Shown here piece by piece: positions 36,001 to 42,000 of a DNA stretch of 64,000 bases. The position numbers are program-made. Source of the DNA: Trichormus sp. ATA11-4-KO1. Its GTDB lineage: Bacteria > Cyanobacteriota > Cyanobacteriia > Cyanobacteriales > Nostocaceae. The stretch spans positions 64,001 through 128,000 of the forward strand of contig JAHHIM010000009.1 of NCBI GenBank assembly GCA_019358915.1. The letters run 5' to 3'. Every line of letters begins with the position of its first letter. Within the stretch, counting starts at the first letter, position 1.

Positions 36001-39000
36001 TTTTGTTTAGGCTTGACCAAATACTAGCCTATTATTTGCAGCAGTAATCTGGGATATGTAGCTACTCACTTACTAGAGATTTTCGTGAAATTAGGATATG
36101 CAATGTATCATAAATATCATTATTTTGCAAAAAAGTAGAGCATAAAAAATTACCTTGTTTCTCAATCAAAAAAGGGTAGAAAAGCCTGCTTATTCGTGAA
36201 TTAATTCAGAACAACAGCCAAAAATTGCAAAATATGATACATAAATCTGAAAAGATTTGTAGAAATACAAAAAGCTGCTTTTCAGAATTAAGTAGTGTGA
36301 GCAACAAGGTATTTTTTGTAAATCCCCAGATTTTACAACTGTAAATTTTTCATAATTCTTAATAATTTACAGTGAAGTTAAAATTTAGTAGCTATTCATA
36401 CCAATTTTGTGTGAAGCTGTGCTTGATTTACCCCAGGCTCACAAGCAAAATCTGCCAGGCAGACTAATTGGCATATCTTTACCAAAAAATGGTATCACAA
36501 CAATATTAAAAGTTTCGCAAAAATCCTCACCTCAGATGCAAAACACTCGTCTCACAAACTTATTCGATGCCATTGCTAGGCGTTTGAGGCAATGGTTTTT
36601 AAATCCTTGGCGACGTCTATCGCTATTAATTATTAATTTTTTATTCGGCTTTTTTCTAGGAACAGCAATTTCCACCATCGCTGGACAAAGAGGCACATTA
36701 GACATTTTGATAGCTGGTATTTTAGTGGCGTTGACAGAGATTACTAGCAGGATATTTTATAGTCGCAGCTTTTTGGCAAGGCAAGCACTTTGGGTAGAAT
36801 CACTCAACTTACTGAAAGTGGGTTTCATCTACAGCATGTTTGTTGAAGCCTTTAAACTGGGTTCATAAAGCCTTCTAAATTTAGTAGAGCTATGTTGAGT
36901 ATTTTAACTGGTTGACAAAAAGAACTCACTCTTGTCATTTCACGGATACATTTCTCATGTAGAAAATGGCTGAAGATGCTGCTTAAACCATGACTGAAGA
37001 CACTGCCAGCCTTGCTTGGCTTCTGTTTCGCGGTAGGAGGGACGATAATCGGCAAAAAAGGCGTGGGGTGCATCGGGGTAGACAATGATTTTGGATTGGC
37101 TACTGCTGGACTTGAGGCGAACGCGCATCTGCTCTACAGTATCCAGAGGAATACCTGTATCCTGACCACCGTAGAGTCCGAGGACAGGGACTCGCAAATC
37201 AGAGGCAATATCAACTGGATGCTGGGGTGTAAGTTCGGTCTTATCGCCCACCAATCGCCCGTACCAGGCCACACCTGCCTTGACTTGAGGATTATGTGCT
37301 GCATACAGCCAGGTAATACGACCGCCCCAGCAGAAGCCTGTAATTCCCAACTTATCCGCGTTGCCCTTAGCTGATTTCACAGCCCAGTCTACCGTGGCAT
37401 CAAGATCGGATAGTACCTGCGCATCTGGCACTTTCGCGACTATCGGACGAATTTCATCTATGCTGGTTAACTTTGAGACATCACCTTGACGCACGAACAT
37501 TTCCGGTGCGATCGCTAAATACCCTAAATTAGCAAAGCGACGACAAACATCCTGGATATGCTCATGCACGCCAAAGATTTCTTGAATCACCAGCACAATG
37601 GGGAAATTTTCTCCCTTTGCAGGTACAGCTCTGTAAGCAGGAATTTCACCATCTGAGACGGGAATTTTCACCGCACTTGCTACCAACCCCTGAGCGTCGG
37701 TGGTAATCACTTGAGCCGAAATGGGCTGCACGGCGAGGGCAAAACCAGTCGCCAAGGTGGCAGTTGTGATAAATTTGCGGCGTGTTATTTCTTTCATGAT
37801 TTTGATAGTTAGCTATACAACCTAGATTCCGCAGGCAAGTGATGAGATTAATAGTATTTTTGACGAATGACACTATAAGTATCAGAAATAAGAGTACAAG
37901 ATATTGAGCAAATAATTACTAATTCGTAATTCGTAATTCGTAATTCGTAATTCGTAATTAAAGAGGGTACAAGCCCCCACTGATTGTAACTACGTACAGC
38001 CTGGCGGCATCTGTAGGCTCTATTATCAATTACGAATTATGTTGACCACTGTGGGATAGTGGCAGGTATCATAGACCAGATGTGTTTGGTAGAGCAACAC
38101 AAGAATATACTGACTCCAGTTCCAGGCTCCTCAATCAGCGATCGCCATTAAAGAATTAAGAAAATTATCAGGCAGTGACGACAATGGCGCTAAACTCTTA
38201 TGACGAATCAGCCCTTAGAGTCAACTTGATAGCTTCTGATGAAATTAGCCGATATCCTCAAAGACTCAAATTACAAGCTGTCGCAGTTTACGATCGCTGA
38301 AATTGAGCAGTTAGAGCAAACAATTACCCTCAAGGCAACCAAAAACGGTGAGGTTCCTTATACGGTTTGTTTGGTGCGCCAAAAAGCAATTAAGCTCACG
38401 CCAGAGGAGTCAATCCGGCAATTATATTTACGAGTTTTGCGCGATCGCTTGCACTATCCCCTCAGTCGCATTCAGGTTGAGTATGGGGTGAATTTTGGGC
38501 GCGAGGTGAAACGGGCAGACATCGTGGTCATGGATAAAGACCGTCCCAACACAGTTTATAGAACCCATTTGACATCTAAGAAGAGGCTGCAAGCCTCTGA
38601 ACCATTAGCCGAATAAAACAAAGATTAACTTTGGCGGTCGCATTAGCTAAAGTTCGCTCAAAGTTCTTGACGAGAATTTTGCATCTCTCCATCCAAGCAT
38701 TTGACCGTTCAATCACCCACCTGGCTGCAACCGGAACAAACCCAGATAGTCGTCAAGCGAGATGCCTGCTTTGGAGACTGTTTCACTCGTTTGAGAACTT
38801 GTTTTCCCCCTTCTCGTTCACCCATACTGGCAGATGTGACCCTGACCCGGCTGAATATTACCAGCCAAAACAGCAAAAAGTTATGACAATCATGCGTCAG
38901 TCTGGTCTTTGTATTGGCAATGTTGTCTCACTTGCAAAGCGCAAATTTCAGCCTGATAAACAAGGCACTTTTAATTACATTGAAATTGGGAATCTCAACG

Positions 39001-42000
39001 GAGAAGGCTTTGCTAATAGTGAAGTAGTAGCAATGGAAGAAGTCCCCAGTCGAGCGCAGTGGATTGTCAAAACTAACGATGTAATTACGTCAACCGTTCG
39101 CCCCATTCGCCGACTCTCAGCCCTGATTGAACCAGAGCAAAACAATTACATTTGTTCATCTGGTTTTGCTGTTCTCAAACCAACCAAAATAGAGCCAGAA
39201 GTTTTACAAGTTTATTTGCGATCGCCCATTGTATGCGAAATCCTTGATCTTCATACAACTGCCAGTATGTATCCGGCAATTTCCACTGAAGACTTGTTAA
39301 ATATTCCGATCACGTTGCCGAAAGAATCTACTCGCCAGAAAATCACAGAAAAGGTCAGAGCATCTCGCAAAGCGCGGGAGCAATCTAAACAACTGCTAGA
39401 AATTGCTAAAACTGGAGTAGAACGGGCAATTGAGACTGATGAAGCCGCAGCCACAACTTGGATGAACCAGCAACTTGAAGCATTAGGCATCACCCTAACT
39501 GCTACCACTTAAACCATCTGGGAGTAATCATGAAAGCACTTAAAGTTATGGCAACGATTAACGATCAGGGACAACTAACTTTAGATTATCCGCTTTTAAC
39601 TGATAAAAATAGCCGAGTAGAAGTCATTGTGCTAATCCCTGAAGTAGAAGAAGTTCTGGATGATTCATCTCAAGCAGAAGTCTTAGCAGATTTCCAGCAA
39701 GCTTGGCACGAAGCCATGACTGGGCAAACTATCCCGGTGGCTCAACTTTGGGAAGGTCTTGAAGATGGTTGATCAGCTGAAGCCACAGCAACAACTTGGA
39801 TAAACCAGCAAGTTGAAGCTATTAGCATTAATTTATCAAATTAAACTTAATTTAATGGAGGCATAATGTCTGAAATTACTTTAAACCCAGAACAACTCAA
39901 GGAAATCTTGAAAAGCGCGATCGTCGAATTGATTCGTGATAACCGTGAGGAAGTCTCTGAATTTTTGACGGAAATTATTGAAGACATAGCAATGGAACGG
40001 GCGATCGCAGAAGGTGAAACAACTGACCTGATTAGCCGCGACTCCATTTTTCAACTTTTGGAGCCGAAATCGTGAAAGTCGAGTTCAGAAAAAGCTTTGA
40101 AAAGGATTTGGGTAAGATTTAAGATGAGGACTTGCTCCTGAGAATTAAAACTGTAATAGAAGAAATGGAAACTGCTGAAAGTCTCTTGAAGATCAGCAAC
40201 ATCAAAAAACTTAAGGCAGATGGAAATTACTACCGTATCCGAGTTGGTGACTATCGAATTGGTTTTGCCGAAGACGAAAATATAATTACCTTTGTTCGTG
40301 TATTACATCGCAAGGAAATATATCGATATTTTCCATAATGAATAACTACTGCTAGAAATTGCTAAAACACAAGTAGAACAGGCGATAGAGACTGATGAAG
40401 CGATCGCCACAACTTGGATAAATCAGCAACTTGAAGTCTTGGGGGTAACGCTGACATGATGATGCAGGCTGAAGCAAAGAAAATCTATACACCCGAAGAG
40501 TATCTCGATTTTGAGGTGAATTCAGATATTCGGCATGAGTATATCAATGGAGAAATCATCCCTATGACTGGCGGCACTCCCGAACATAATGAAATTGCCA
40601 GTATTCTCAATGCCGCCTTAAGAGTCAGTTTGAAAGGGAAACCGTACAGTATTTTTGTAGCGGATCAACGGCTTTGGATTCCCAATCGCACGCTTTATAC
40701 CTACCCGGATGTCATGGTTGTCCCCCGCCCACTTGAACGACAACAGGGACGAACTGATACAATTACTAACCCGGTGATGATCGCCGAAGTGCTTTCAAAA
40801 TCAACCAAAAGCTACGATAGAGATGAAAAATTTTCAGCGTATCGTACCATTCCAACATTTCAAGAGTATTTATTGATTGATCAATATACTGCTCATGTTG
40901 AGCAATACTCCAAAGCTGACTCCCATAGATGGATCTTTACTGAATATGACGATACAGAATCTTATATTTCACTCTCATCGATTCCCTTTGAAATTCGTTT
41001 AGCAGATATCTATGAAAATATTGAATTTGAGCCATAGTGGAAATTGCTAAACCACAAGTAGAACGGGCGATAGAGACTGATGAAGATAAGGCAACCACTT
41101 GGATAAATCAACAGCTTAAAGCATTAAATGTTGAAATAAGAGATGAAAGAAATTCGCTTTAGCGATCATGCTCAATTAAAAATGGAGGTTTTAGCGAGTC
41201 ATGAAATAAGCGTCGATCCCAACTTTGTAATAGAGACAGTGCGATCGCCAGACAAGCTAGAAACTGGTGAAGTGGATAAACTGATTGCACAAAAGCGTTT
41301 AGACGAAAATTTAGTGCTTCGAGTCGTTTACCGAGAATTCAATGCTTTCATTTTGATCGTCACCCTTTATCCTGGCAGGAGGTCTAGATATGAAAAAGAT
41401 TAGCTACAGCAAAGATGTTGATGCTCTATTAATTGAACTTTCCAATGAGCCAATTGCCTATGCTGAAGATGAAGGACAAGTGATTTTGCATTATTCTCAA
41501 GATGCCAAGCTAGTTTTAGTTGAAATACTAGACTTTCGACGCTTGATGTCAAATGAAACTGTGACTGCATTGTTAGCCTCCTGAGAAAATTGCAAAAATA
41601 GGAGTAGAACAGGCGATAGAGACTGATGAAGCGACAGCCACAACTGGGATAAACCAACAACTAAAAGCCTTTGAGGTAGAAATGCCATGAAGATTACTGC
41701 AATAGATTTGCCAATGGATCAGATTCGTGAGTTTTGTTACAAGTGGCAAGTTACCGAATTTGCCTTGTTCGGCTCCATTTTACGCGATGACTTTCGCCCC
41801 GAAAGCGATATTGATGTGCTGCTCACCTTTTCTGCAACTGCGAAACGGGGCTTAAGCGAAACTCTGCAAATGCGCGATCAATTGCAAGCTATTTTCAACC
41901 GCCCTGTAGATTTGATTGTAAAAACCGCGATCAAGCGCAGTGAAAACTGGCTCAGACGTAAAAATATTTTGAATCCGCACTAGTCATCTATGCCGCGTGA

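Follow-up and report, generated by a model that had tools for sequence, protein, structure and literature searches.

Accessory modules between diverged copies of a restriction gene's 3' end in Trichormus sp. ATA11-4-KO1

Genes and repeats at the locus

The window analysed here is a 64,000-nt stretch of contig JAHHIM010000009.1 of Trichormus sp. ATA11-4-KO1, and all coordinates are positions within it (window 1 = contig 64,001). It contains what is left of a restriction gene, followed by small cassettes and a terminal unit that are separated by copies of the restriction gene's 3' end, which we call tails (Table 1).

The genome-wide survey's note had identified the gene at the head of this array as a type I hsdS that insertion had left intact. 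What stands here is instead the 3' remnant of a dead, BsaXI-like gene for a single-chain restriction-modification-specificity (R-M-S) enzyme, divided by an IS scar. Its full-length relatives (~1,170-1,196 aa) are HSDR_N_2, N6_Mtase and Methylase_S fusions for which the closest solved structure is BsaXI, and neither hsdM nor hsdR is present in the locus neighbourhood; on these grounds an intact type I hsdS was rejected. The 5' fragment matches Pfam HSDR_N_2 (E 2.7e-12) over profile positions 1-50 of 110 only, and its first 85 nt are common to the sister genome, where they are joined straight to a tail. The scar corresponds to the 3' end of a transposase ORF of 274 aa (contig C1, 11591-12415; 82% over 112 nt), and a 46-aa ORF at 38576-38716 matched no Pfam family. 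The surviving 3' part comprises the last 209 codons, scoring 23.6 bits with Pfam Methylase_S and 42.7 bits with the NCBIfam MAD5 S-subunit model, under that model's cut-off. Loss of the gene by deletion is seen here and, independently, in the sister genome, and a gene of full length is kept in only 6 of the 40 relatives' loci.

Table 1. Features of the restriction-gene locus, in window coordinates
Feature	Position	Strand	Description
R-M-S gene 5' fragment	38239..38616	+	Nuclease domain, interrupted half-way
IS scar	38740..38850	-	Remnant, 3' end of IS5-like transposase gene
R-M-S gene 3' fragment	38883..39512	+	One target-recognition domain and conserved C-terminal helix
Tail A	39388..39490	+	~95-nt conserved tail, still joined to R-M-S gene remnant
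Tail A own end	to 39512	+	End type RelN-linked
Cassette 1	39530..39772	+	RelN-family antitoxin (NCBIfam NF050107, 109.5 bits, cut-off 70)
Tail A'	39776..39845	+	Partial, 3' half only; end type RelB-linked
Cassette 2	39866..40338	+	RelB-like antitoxin 39866-40075; ParE toxin 40072-40338
Tail B	40344..40459	+	Own stop TGA 40457-40459 overlaps Uma2 start (ATGA)
Cassette 3	40456..41037	+	Uma2-family PD-(D/E)xK nuclease (Pfam Uma2, 1.9e-35)
Tail C	41037..41162	+	Own 14-codon end; 20-nt overlap with next gene's start
Cassette 4	41143..41584	+	86-aa protein 41143-41403; DUF2283 protein 41390-41584
Tail D	41581..41690	+	Stop overlaps MNT start (ATGA)
Terminal unit	41687..42178	+	MNT nucleotidyltransferase 41687-41983; truncated HEPN partner 41990-42178

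Tails were queried by blastn against the complete 5.97-Mb assembly, and a separate repeat search of the window recovers the same tail family. The repeat unit is formed by the final ~95 nt of the specificity region, located by blastn at 39388-39480, with four further copies at the locus, one of them partial; all lie in one orientation, and the search found no copies elsewhere in the assembly. The three copies described by the survey were reproduced in position, strand and identity (79-86%): 40344-40436 (86.0% over 93 nt, E 7e-25), 41587-41671 (83.5% over 85 nt) and 41040-41126 (79.3% over 87 nt). A partial fifth member of the family, overlooked until now, sits between the RelN gene and RelB/ParE (89.6% over 48 nt by blastn) and therefore raises the count from three cassettes and four tails to four cassettes and five tails. 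It spans HMM positions 45-93 and can be aligned to the sister genome's complete tail ahead of RelB. The likeness among copies ends ~5-14 codons ahead of each stop codon, and because the ends and stops that follow are unrelated from one copy to the next, the stop lies outside the repeat and not, as had been proposed, within it. The junction of Tail B with Uma2 is 88-90% identical in many genomes.

Several of the window's four cassettes are decaying. Cassette 1 lacks the RelE-like toxin that comes after RelN in relatives; at this place a toxin gene of ~365-400 nt is found in the sister genome and in metagenome contigs. In Cassette 2, which begins with a RelB-like antitoxin (Pfam RelB_like_antitoxin, 2e-16), the ParE gene is interrupted by an in-frame TAA read from the sequence at 40120-40122. 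Position 40120 is a C in other organisms' contigs, the Pfam ParE_toxin match covers profile positions 31-89 only, and the sister genome's ParE has 88 aa. Of the 9 relatives at 76% identity or more, 8 have a tail directly upstream of Uma2. Cassette 4 is a putative toxin-antitoxin (TA) pair, made up of a DUF2283 protein (Pfam DUF2283, 3.7e-11) and an 86-aa protein that matched no Pfam or NCBIfam family; it was not found in the sister genome, and both of its genes are contiguous with Uma2 in one metagenome contig. In the terminal unit, MNT matches Pfam NTP_transf_2 (1.7e-16) and the 62-aa HEPN ORF clusters with the 106-125-aa HepT-like proteins of relatives.

Arrays in relatives and anatomy of the tail

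The tail is present in 120 of the 389 family genomes; its presence in relatives had been recognized, although at the much smaller extent of 6 in 41 Nostocaceae. We fetched 40 relatives' loci by matches to the Uma2-linked tail, so cassette frequencies among them are biased. There were 21 arrays of 2-4 tails and 19 loci with a single tail. Uma2 is the commonest cassette, with 28 copies in 41 loci and a place in 18 of the 21 relatives' loci that hold several tails, a count subject to that bias, and three arrays (L003, L027 and L039) are without it. Some loci are ordered R-M-S gene, RelN-RelE, Uma2, and others R-M-S gene, Uma2, then RelN-RelE, or Uma2 followed by RelB. The sister array, which shares its chromosomal flanks with the window array, runs RelB-ParE, RelN-RelE, Uma2, MNT, whereas ours runs RelN, RelB-ParE, Uma2, the DUF2283 pair, MNT. 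Metagenome contigs (at least 90% likeness) show the same cassettes in additional orders, with every joint inside a tail and with some linking the gene's tail straight to MNT or Uma2. In these assembled contigs, no excision or insertion was observed within a population. Arrays also occur in other cyanobacterial orders, the same cassettes standing in varied chromosomal neighbourhoods: a Chroococcidiopsidaceae contig has six tails with MNT-HEPN twice, HicBA, RelB and Uma2, and on plasmid pAQ6 of PCC 7002 the R-M-S gene is followed by RelN-like and RelE genes. HicAB and DUF2281/PIN are further modules in relatives. Arrays reach up to 5-6 units, and their cassette genes are all co-oriented. Compared across genomes, the units thus behave as the survey had described them, as cassettes bounded by tails and variable in content and order.

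To examine the tail itself we aligned the 70 full-length tails among 82 from the window and the 40 relatives' loci. The upstream gene co-varies with the alignment columns as far as the tail start (excess MI reaching 1.0 and z 17), and the downstream gene with those from ~25-30 nt before the tail end onward (z reaching 20), MI and z both being inflated by kinship among the genomes; the middle is linked to neither neighbour, and the weak gradients overlap. The 5' edge of the tail travels with the preceding gene, and its 3' end (the last 5-14 codons, the stop and the start overlap) with the following one, leaving only the middle ~55-75 nt in common. The cassettes are therefore modules exchanged within the tail, and the notion that each cassette closes with its tail gives way to one in which the 3' part belongs to the gene behind. 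The spacing from tail to start codon is fixed for each gene type (~10 nt for Uma2, ~40 nt for RelN and RelB), and every gene-to-tail junction lies no more than ~25 nt from where the conserved tail starts and 0-30 nt past a stop codon. Tails are more conserved than their cargo (85.8% versus 77.1% mean pairwise identity). Single-strand folding was not detected in them (z -1.4 to +1.1), nor was an Rfam match, and no promoter-like site was predicted in or ahead of them. Stops or indels occur in 22 of 45 orphan tails but in 0 of 25 gene-attached tails, and the orphans show twice the diversity at codon positions 1 and 2.

The window's ORFs include no integrase, and none was found in the 75 of 100 recurrent neighbour clusters tested, or inside or adjoining any of the 41 arrays and loci, in keeping with the survey's statement that the loci have no recombinase in common. 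The recurrent neighbour clusters likewise held no reverse transcriptase linked to tails. An integron-integrase-family gene does lie elsewhere in this genome (TIGR02249, 347 bits), N-truncated and without model positions 1-96. The family exceeds its cut-off in 14 of the 389 family genomes and, at E<=1e-60, has no match in 20 of the 21 other multi-tail genomes.

Orphan gene tails across the genome

With an ORF set of our own (4,574 in number, each 100 aa or longer), we counted matches of at least 45 nt to the last 150 nt of each gene that lay at most 10 kb away and outside any ORF, contig C68, a tandem array, having been removed beforehand. Orphan tails were found same-strand downstream for 15 genes, same-strand upstream for 4 and on the opposite strand for 3; the mirror control with the first 150 nt gave 3 upstream and 3 downstream on the same strand and 4 opposite. 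The downstream bias reported by the survey was thus recovered independently. Its recurrent design of TA modules behind genes was upheld in that other such loci exist, but TA cargo is present in only 5 of the 15; the set also includes one ordinary integrase island and ~4 artefacts due to IS, paralogues or micro-duplications.

The tails of the ABC, cobA, DUF2887 and ClpC host genes are unrelated sequences of 84-316 nt. At the ABC-transporter locus, for which G384 has an empty site, three tail copies surround two HicAB modules. The middle copy is a hybrid: its 5' part has a deletion common to the distal orphan, and its 3' part resembles the host's tail and HicA start. From these sequences, unequal homologous exchange can be read directly. 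For cobA, a near-empty site is present in G101.

Origin of the array and its precedents

On balance, the locus is probably a decaying "tail array" whose modules are shuffled by homologous recombination on a portable homology block. A BsaXI-like single-chain R-M-S gene would once have occupied it, and that gene's last ~95 nt, which encode the conserved C-terminal helix and are the sole conserved part beside the hypervariable recognition domain, would act as the block. Each module (RelN/RelE, RelB/ParE, Uma2, the DUF2283 pair, MNT/HEPN) carries the tail's 3' part before its first gene, resembling a native operon junction with a handful of its own codons, its stop and, in many cases, an ATGA overlap, and the tail's 5' part just behind its last stop codon. 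Exchange in the common middle could then insert, delete, duplicate and permute modules. The enzyme would most likely be ordinary RecA-type homologous recombination, through unequal crossing-over between chromosome copies and exchange with incoming DNA, and the first duplication at a gene may have been a rare one-sided-homology or Campbell-type event, as in insertion with long target duplication. Orphan tails, having no coding role, decay, and the R-M-S gene itself is usually lost. This reading is weakened in that RecA works poorly on stretches of 55-75 nt with 80-95% identity, and the tightness of the junctions exceeds that of random illegitimate joining and would suit a site-specific process. 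In a four-gamete test for scattered crossover points, the fraction of incompatible site pairs was 0.39 in the tail, inside the 0.09-0.42 seen in windows of the Uma2 gene.

Such a process, integron-like, would use the tail as attachment site for a recombinase encoded elsewhere (IntI-like, Xer-type or of another kind), with circular one-tail cassettes as substrates that enter and leave at a defined core. We consider it unlikely: the tight and uniform boundaries, the co-orientation, the better conservation of tails than cargo and the integron-integrase-family gene in this genome fit it, but that gene is truncated, its family is far rarer than the tail and matches in just one of the 21 other multi-tail genomes, no integrase stands at any of the 41 arrays and loci, the tails lack a hairpin, those of the other host genes are unrelated sequences, and the linkage gradients overlap where steps would be looked for. 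Less likely still is an origin without mobility, as the wreck of tandem or successive restriction genes in which deletions left tails and gene conversion homogenised them. Deletion alone could not permute the order, internal tails keep no recognition-domain sequence and all start within ~25 nt of the conserved region, and the same cassettes occur in differing neighbourhoods and cyanobacterial orders; moreover, a given type of gene-to-tail junction is the same in different genera, implying that it arose once and then spread as a module. It does agree with the independent deletions of the restriction gene, with the resemblance of tail-to-gene junctions, ATGA overlaps included, to those of native operons, and with the existence of single-partner genes (the 19 one-tail loci; pAQ6).

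Nuclease-driven homing, in which Uma2 or the R-M-S enzyme would cut in or near the tail and repair would copy tail-flanked cassettes from another copy, comparable to the spread of free-standing homing endonuclease genes in phages, ranks lower again. The abundance of Uma2 would favour it, as would the Kobayashi group's proposal that double-strand breakage lies behind long-target-duplication insertions of selfish modules (PMC2853133). That abundance is biased by the Uma2-linked query, however, some arrays lack Uma2, and the TA cassettes at cobA, ABC and DUF2887 are without a nuclease. In the literature we found nothing on the function of this Uma2 subfamily. A transcript origin is very improbable. 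An mRNA that begins within the gene's 3' end and stops shortly behind the cargo's last codon, if copied into DNA by reverse transcription and returned to the chromosome through homology, would explain the tight cassette ends (0-35 nt from stop codons) and the strict co-orientation, and would agree with the narrow span of repeat lengths, 84-316 nt; yet no linked reverse transcriptase or promoter-like site was found, the sequence upstream of the R-M-S tail is hypervariable and so cannot hold a conserved promoter, and the model is entirely inferential.

The survey had regarded this capture mode as unlike integrons, transposons or tRNA islands. Insertion with long target duplication was reportedly described by Nobusato et al. 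in 2000. As set out by Furuta, Abe and Kobayashi in 2010, restriction-modification systems, which are selfish addiction-type modules, enter without mobility genes between direct repeats of >30 bp that are present once in the empty-site genome and often overlap the 3' end of a neighbouring gene, as here; most cases come from bacteria with natural competence and from Microcystis, and the repeats permit later amplification (PMC2853133). To this extent a precedent exists. The cargo there is R-M systems, whereas here it is TA pairs, Uma2 and MNT/HEPN, with a restriction gene as target; the repeats there are near-identical, whereas here they are diverged (79-98%); and arrays of up to six units, with modules shared and permuted across genera and orders, are not described in the passages of that account considered here (PMC2853133). 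In Microcystis aeruginosa, a TA module flanked by 152-bp direct repeats lies behind the orthocaspase gene MaOC1 (Klemencic et al. 2021, PMC7935541). Like ours, it is a ParE/ParD-like module right behind the host gene and between two long repeats, but those repeats are identical, start 14 bp past the stop codon, have an inverted repeat and, in the portion of the report available, are not presented as duplicating the coding end of the host gene (PMC7935541).

Integron arrays, too, consist of co-oriented small cassettes, often TA, stacked at a single site and each delimited by a recombination element, with tight ends and variable order; the present array differs in having no adjacent integrase, no attI and no attC hairpin, and its repeat is conserved at the sequence level and is a piece of a protein-coding gene. 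Homology-facilitated illegitimate recombination brings foreign DNA into transformable bacteria by a one-sided anchor. Such an anchor would explain entry at conserved gene 3' ends beside dispensable intergenic DNA, but the classical outcome is insertion with deletion and no duplicated anchor; a duplicated one would require an illegitimate joint upstream of the anchor.

Rhs and CDI loci have arrays of orphan C-terminal toxin/immunity pairs downstream of rhs, cdiA and similar polymorphic-toxin genes, and in the model for them homologous recombination at a conserved segment pushes older ends downstream. The layout is alike: a main gene with a conserved segment and a variable end, and tandem orphans behind it, each of which opens with a piece of the conserved segment and continues with another end and its accessory gene or genes. 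In those loci the main protein carries the variable end as a fused toxin domain, to which the accessory gene confers immunity; here the variable end is only 5-14 codons long, and the cargo is free-standing and unrelated to the enzyme's function. Taken together, insertion with long target duplication and these orphan Rhs/CDI arrays are the closest precedents, and the locus is a variation on a known kind.

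The restriction gene and its tails

The array is punctuated by copies of the conserved last ~95 nt of a restriction gene, which we call tails: tail A is attached to the gene, and A', B, C and D are orphan copies (see the table). When five tail segments were queried by blastn against the whole 5.97-Mb assembly, matches were confined to the restriction-gene locus, where all copies are plus-strand direct repeats; a repeat search of the window, with a minimum repeat of 30 nt, found the same direct-repeat families and zero inverted ones. Because blastn returned the same positions and values, the tail coordinates and identities in the genome-wide survey's note are right. 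Its list lacked the partial copy A', and its count of three cassettes becomes four cassettes with five tails before the MNT gene: RelN alone, RelB with ParE, Uma2, and an 86-aa protein with a DUF2283 protein. The repeats and their cassette behavior are real, widespread and well above chance.

Features of the array and related loci, in window coordinates unless another record is named
Feature	Position	Strand	Remarks
R-M-S restriction gene, 5' fragment	38239-38616		HSDR_N_2 profile positions 1-50 of 110
Scar of IS5-like transposase gene	38740-38850		Within the restriction-gene remnant
R-M-S restriction gene, last 209 codons	38883-39512		Surviving 3' piece
Tail A	39388-39512	+	Mapped by blastn
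Tail A', fifth copy, partial	39776-39845	+	89.6% over 48 nt
Tail B	40344-40436	+	86.0% over 93 nt, E 7e-25
HIP1 site at tail B	40396-40403
Tail C	41040-41126	+	79.3% over 87 nt
Tail D	41587-41671	+	83.5% over 85 nt
Stretch at HEPN cut-off	42076-42192		Short tandem repeat (GCCTTTGCG units)
DUF4926/DUF6883 gene pair	42222-42798	-	Overlapping genes, beyond the array
Second Uma2 gene	45271-45828	+	3 kb further, without a tail
ClpC locus (L052)	contig C65, 227298-229980		316-nt direct repeat, 98.4%
Integrase island (L043)	contig C5, 117830-126487		At molybdopterin oxidoreductase gene
Tandem repeat	contig C68, ~1000-3350		~33 copies of a ~72-nt unit, 75-85% alike, overlapped by ORFs
Plasmid pAQ6 locus (L181)	record 95717-105897		Mobilizable plasmid; restriction gene beside a strawberry-notch-like helicase gene

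The host gene had been taken for a type I hsdS. No methylase or restriction subunit was found near it, as adjoining hsdM and hsdR genes would be; the nearest N6_Mtase genes of the genome sit on three other contigs (C39, C15 and C65), and the ORF matches Pfam Methylase_S weakly (23.6 bits). In relatives, the ORF that ends in the tail is one protein of 1,171-1,196 aa (loci L003, L012, L014, L019, L022 and L039), in which HSDR_N_2, N6_Mtase/Eco57I and Methylase_S are fused in a single chain. The best solved relatives of the gene are the type IIB enzyme chains RM.BsaXI (E 1.4e-22) and S.BsaXI (E 4.5e-9), and it resembles the MAD2 and MAD5 families, both below cut-off. A phase-variable hsdS shufflon was considered and rejected: the copies are all direct, the orphans have no recognition domain and no recombinase lies nearby.

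Contrary to the earlier description of a host gene left intact, the gene is dead in the window, and the full gene of ~1,170-1,196 aa is kept in only 6 of 40 relatives' loci. In the sister genome G140 the flank and the gene's first 85 nt are the same, after which the shared sequence resumes 29 nt ahead of the tail; one ancestral gene was thus deleted independently in the two lineages. Tails outlive the restriction gene. Those still attached to a gene are intact in all 25 cases and are under protein-level constraint, with summed diversity of 2.44, 2.47 and 8.15 at codon positions 1, 2 and 3. Orphan tails are relics: 22 of 45 carry stops or indels, and diversity is doubled at positions 1 and 2 (5.18, 4.58 and 8.40 at the three positions). 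For annotation, the finding serves as a flag: a short ORF similar to the end of an S subunit is a relic and not a gene.

Decay extends to the cassettes of the window: the toxin partner of RelN is missing, an in-frame TAA interrupts ParE at 40120 (other organisms' contigs have C there), and HEPN is truncated. Metagenome contigs covering the stretch at which HEPN is cut off reach 50-1,100x summed depth, far above the flanks, and the stretch is probably a small dispersed repeat element.

Anatomy and movement of the cassettes

Similarity among the tails stops ~5-14 codons before each copy's own stop codon, and beyond the shared stretch every tail enters different sequence that belongs to the following gene. 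The TGA of tail B overlaps the ATG of Uma2, and that of tail D the ATG of MNT; tail C and the next ORF overlap by 20 nt, and the stop of tail A lies 18 nt ahead of RelN. On the upstream side, each tail that follows a cassette gene begins right next to that gene's stop codon.

To this we added 40 loci fetched from genomes of the family, in which tails were mapped with a profile built from the four full window copies, for a total of 82 tails including the window's. The 70 that were full-length were aligned, and the mutual information of each column with the identity of the neighboring genes was calculated. Columns to the left of the tail and up to its first bases follow the upstream gene, and those from ~25-30 nt before the tail end onward follow the downstream gene; the middle ~55-75 nt follows neither, with weak, overlapping gradients. 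Each gene type also keeps its own fixed spacing between the tail and the following start codon, regardless of upstream content. From this linkage and constant spacing we infer that the cassette consists of the 3' part of a tail, the gene or genes, and the 5' part of a tail, with the shared middle as the exchange zone. Annotated cassette genes are all on the tail's strand and compactly arranged, with gene-tail gaps of 0-40 nt; minus-strand ORFs at these loci overlap tails or RelB and belong to no family.

Cassette order is fluid. The window reads RelN, RelB-ParE, Uma2, 86-aa protein plus DUF2283, and MNT-HEPN; G140, with the same chromosomal flanks, reads RelB-ParE, RelN-RelE, Uma2 and MNT-HEPN, its RelN allele being only 84% identical to the window's and its other cassettes 90-95%. 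Elsewhere the restriction gene is followed by RelN-RelE and Uma2, or by Uma2 and RelN-RelE, and Uma2 is followed by RelB or by a second Uma2, among other orders. The same cassettes, at least 90% alike, occur in further orders in assembled contigs of four public runs, which represent other organisms and not within-strain variants; every cassette joint in these contigs falls inside a tail, and some fuse the gene's tail straight to MNT or Uma2. Permuted orders are beyond what deletion alone can produce. The arrays do not all end at the same MNT gene, as had been thought, but also at RelB, RelN, Uma2 or unrelated chromosomal genes, and their neighborhoods vary widely (tRNA synthetases, ATP synthase, obg and GGDEF-EAL genes among them).

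With at most two matches scored per genome, the Uma2-linked tail was matched in 120 of 389 family genomes and 21 of 68 genera. Two to four tails were present at 21 of the 40 fetched loci and a single tail at 19. We also searched one genome per species across all prokaryotes for close relatives of the window's Uma2. At a protein identity of at least 76%, a tail ends just before the ATG in 8 of 9 loci, which belong to Nostocales, Fischerella, Leptolyngbya, Chroococcidiopsidaceae and unclassified cyanobacterial bins; at 72% or below, a tail is present in only 1 of 71. On a Chroococcidiopsidaceae contig, six tails separate MNT-HEPN, MNT-HEPN, HicB-HicA, RelB and Uma2. A search of plasmids gave two weak matches in all, one being pAQ6 of Picosynechococcus sp. 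PCC 7002, in which a RelN-like gene and then a RelE/ParE toxin gene come directly after a 1,179-aa "N-6 DNA methylase". From an RNA library of another organism (run X24, record 19) comes a 1.5-kb contig that runs from RelN through a toxin-sized gap and a tail to Uma2, and on through a further tail to RelB-ParE; it may point either to transcripts reading through from one cassette to the next or to carryover DNA in the library.

Orphan tails at other genes

The survey's note had reported the same design across the genome. We re-examined this in our own crude set of 4,574 non-overlapping ORFs of at least 100 aa from this one genome, accepting matches to the last 150 nt that were at least 45 nt long, no more than 10 kb away and outside any ORF, and dropping contig C68, with its tandem repeat, before counting. 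Matches were found same-strand downstream for 15 genes, same-strand upstream for 4 and on the opposite strand for 3; the mirror control with the first 150 nt gave 3 same-strand upstream, 3 same-strand downstream and 4 opposite. The downstream same-strand excess thus holds (15 versus 3 in the mirror control), whereas toxin-antitoxin (TA) cargo is present in only 5 of the 15 genes. These five are the present locus, an ABC-transporter ATPase gene with HicAB twice, a DUF2887 gene with Phd/PIN (143-nt repeat, 95.1%), cobA with an Unstab_antitox/ParE pair (146-nt repeat, 80.8%) and an HTH gene with HicAB and PIN. The others comprise ClpC, with a 356-aa protein of no family and DUF6972, an SDR gene with a P450, a molybdopterin oxidoreductase gene on contig C5 with an ordinary integrase island, an IS, a WD40 paralogue, two micro-duplications and three unclear cases.

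Comparison with relatives marks these gene ends as hotspots. The ABC gene has three tail copies around two HicAB modules in this genome and one tail in each of the seven relatives examined, including an empty site with a 133-nt intergenic gap in G384; in six other genera it is followed by unrelated inserts without tail copies. cobA directly abuts its conserved neighbor in G101, and has a second tail in both this genome and G064, behind different cargo in each, the G064 insert being an FAD monooxygenase gene with its own 102-nt orphan tail. ParE relatives of the cobA locus number five in the species collection, the sister's at 100% and the next at 71%. The ClpC insert holds a ~150-nt element of which the sister genome has more than 25 copies, and the sister's ClpC has one tail and a different 1-kb filler. 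For cobA and ClpC, neither the sister nor other genera gave a clean empty site: the DNA downstream has been replaced there and is not simply missing. The 3' bias needs no special machinery, because a conserved gene end beside dispensable DNA is the sole anchor that spares both the gene and its promoter link.

The C5 island is the one case of an integrase-borne island at a gene's 3' end, an arrangement absent from the window locus. Its integrase gene (TIGR02249, 347 bits against a cut-off of 265, matching model positions 97-313 only) adjoins the 3' end of the molybdopterin oxidoreductase gene, and an 80-nt tail copy (92.5%) lies 6.3 kb off; no attC-like repeats were seen there in the repeat search. 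Between the gene tail and the copy are MarR, NmrA-like, Fe-S and DUF2887-fragment genes and several small ORFs.

The cyanobacterial HIP1 palindrome GCGATCGC occurs five times in or at the edge of the ~1 kb of tail repeats (cobA, ABC, DUF2887 twice, and the ClpC edge), with ~0.8 expected from the genome density of 0.83 per kb, in a small sample counted post hoc. HIP1 sites lie at direct repeats on contigs C24, C11, C18 and C65 and at tail B of the window.

Exchange of the cassettes and known systems

We lean toward RecA-type recombination acting on a short portable homology block, on the grounds that no recombinase recurs at the arrays, that the tails do not fold, and that one tail at the ABC locus is a hybrid. 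No integrase is among the window's 16 ORFs, and no integrase or resolvase recurs near the arrays in the 75 of 100 recurrent neighbor clusters scanned, in which the sole transposase interrupts one restriction gene. At the ABC locus, laid out as gene, HicA-HicB, tail, HicA-HicB, tail, the middle tail has a 5' part with the 24-nt deletion of the distal orphan and a 3' part matching the host tail and the HicA start. This is exactly as predicted by unequal exchange, and homologous recombination is therefore directly readable there. A four-gamete test on the tail (369 of 1,128 site pairs incompatible; a minimum of 22 intervals) was dropped as evidence for scattered crossovers, since in a control on the same 22 sequences the adjoining Uma2 gene (0.09-0.42 incompatible) was similar to the tail (0.39).

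A site-specific enzyme acting on the tails in trans seems to us an improbable alternative. It is kept alive by the tightness of the gene-to-tail junctions, all of which lie within ~25 nt of the conserved-region start and 0-30 nt past a stop codon. The integron-integrase family (TIGR02249) is too rare for the arrays to depend on: it scores above cut-off in 14 of 389 family genomes and matches at E<=1e-60 in 1 of 21 other multi-tail genomes, and this genome's own member, on C5, is N-truncated, lacking the first 96 model positions. The idea of attC-like hairpins was dropped after single-strand folding of four tails as DNA, on both strands, gave z scores of -1.42 to +1.12 against shuffled sequences, with no excess structure, and no inverted repeat appeared in the tails in the screen of repeats of at least 30 nt. 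Nor did the region carry an Rfam match at E<=1 (window 37500-43000), or the tails a plus-strand promoter or terminator by consensus scan, whose overall yield was 7 promoter-like sites, where 9.4 were expected, and 1 terminator-like site, where the expectation was 3.7.

The co-oriented, compact cassettes recall an integron, which differs in its adjacent intI and hairpin attC sites, neither of which is found here. Rhs/CDI loci have orphan C-terminal modules in arrays, and the layout is the same, each tail having its own 5-14 codons and stop and then its own gene or genes. The ends here are, however, too short for toxin domains paired with an immunity gene, and the cargo consists of free-standing TA pairs, Uma2 and MNT/HEPN.

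The capture mode had been called unlike integrons, transposons or tRNA islands; it is a variant of a known process and not a new category, the nearest one described being the "insertion with long target duplication" of Furuta et al. (PMC2853133). There, restriction-modification systems that bring no mobility genes are inserted and lie between direct repeats of >30 bp, some overlapping a gene's 3' end, with cases in competent bacteria and Microcystis and with amplification via the repeats proposed (PMC2853133). Repeats of >30 bp that are single in a relative are found here at ABC (empty site in G384) and cobA (near-empty site in G101); at the restriction gene, 19 of 40 loci are single-tailed, with no strictly isogenic empty site found. 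Inserts free of transposase and integrase are the rule, the C5 island excepted. Copies from the recipient are expected to be near-identical, and identities are 98.4% at ClpC, 95.1% at DUF2887, 80.8% at cobA and 79-86% at the restriction-gene locus. The tail ends of the array differ by neighbor, which fits tails that arrived with the cassette rather than being copied from the target. Among 25 of the 32 titles that a full-text search for "insertion with long target duplication" brought up, none is on TA arrays, and a limited literature search gave no published account of tail arrays behind this family of restriction genes. In the excerpted text of Van Melderen and Saavedra De Bast, the 2000 long-target-duplication paper appears only in the reference list. 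A Microcystis TA pair after an orthocaspase gene is fenced by 152-bp direct repeats, which the excerpted text does not describe as a gene-end copy (PMC7935541).

We tentatively propose, as a possibility short of even odds, a recombinase-free cassette platform in cyanobacteria. Its portable docking sequence would be the conserved final ~95 nt of a restriction gene that is widespread or, less often, the 3' end of an ordinary gene. TA and defense modules with half of that sequence at each end would need only homologous recombination to form stacks, be rearranged and cross between genera and between orders. Chromosomal TA and small defense genes are patchy and mobile, usually without a transposase or integrase alongside, and such a platform, if real, would offer a general account of how chromosomal TA modules travel when no mobility gene is present. 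Should the exchange be plain homologous recombination, it carries "insertion with long target duplication" over to TA cargo and iterated arrays, and a simple transformation assay is on offer in competent cyanobacteria. This locus and its relatives provide a readable anatomy of one route: in many cyanobacteria, modules with half of a conserved gene tail on either side are shuffled behind a restriction gene, which in most cases has itself disappeared. Housekeeping genes show the signature too, in the form of an orphan gene tail behind an inserted TA pair.
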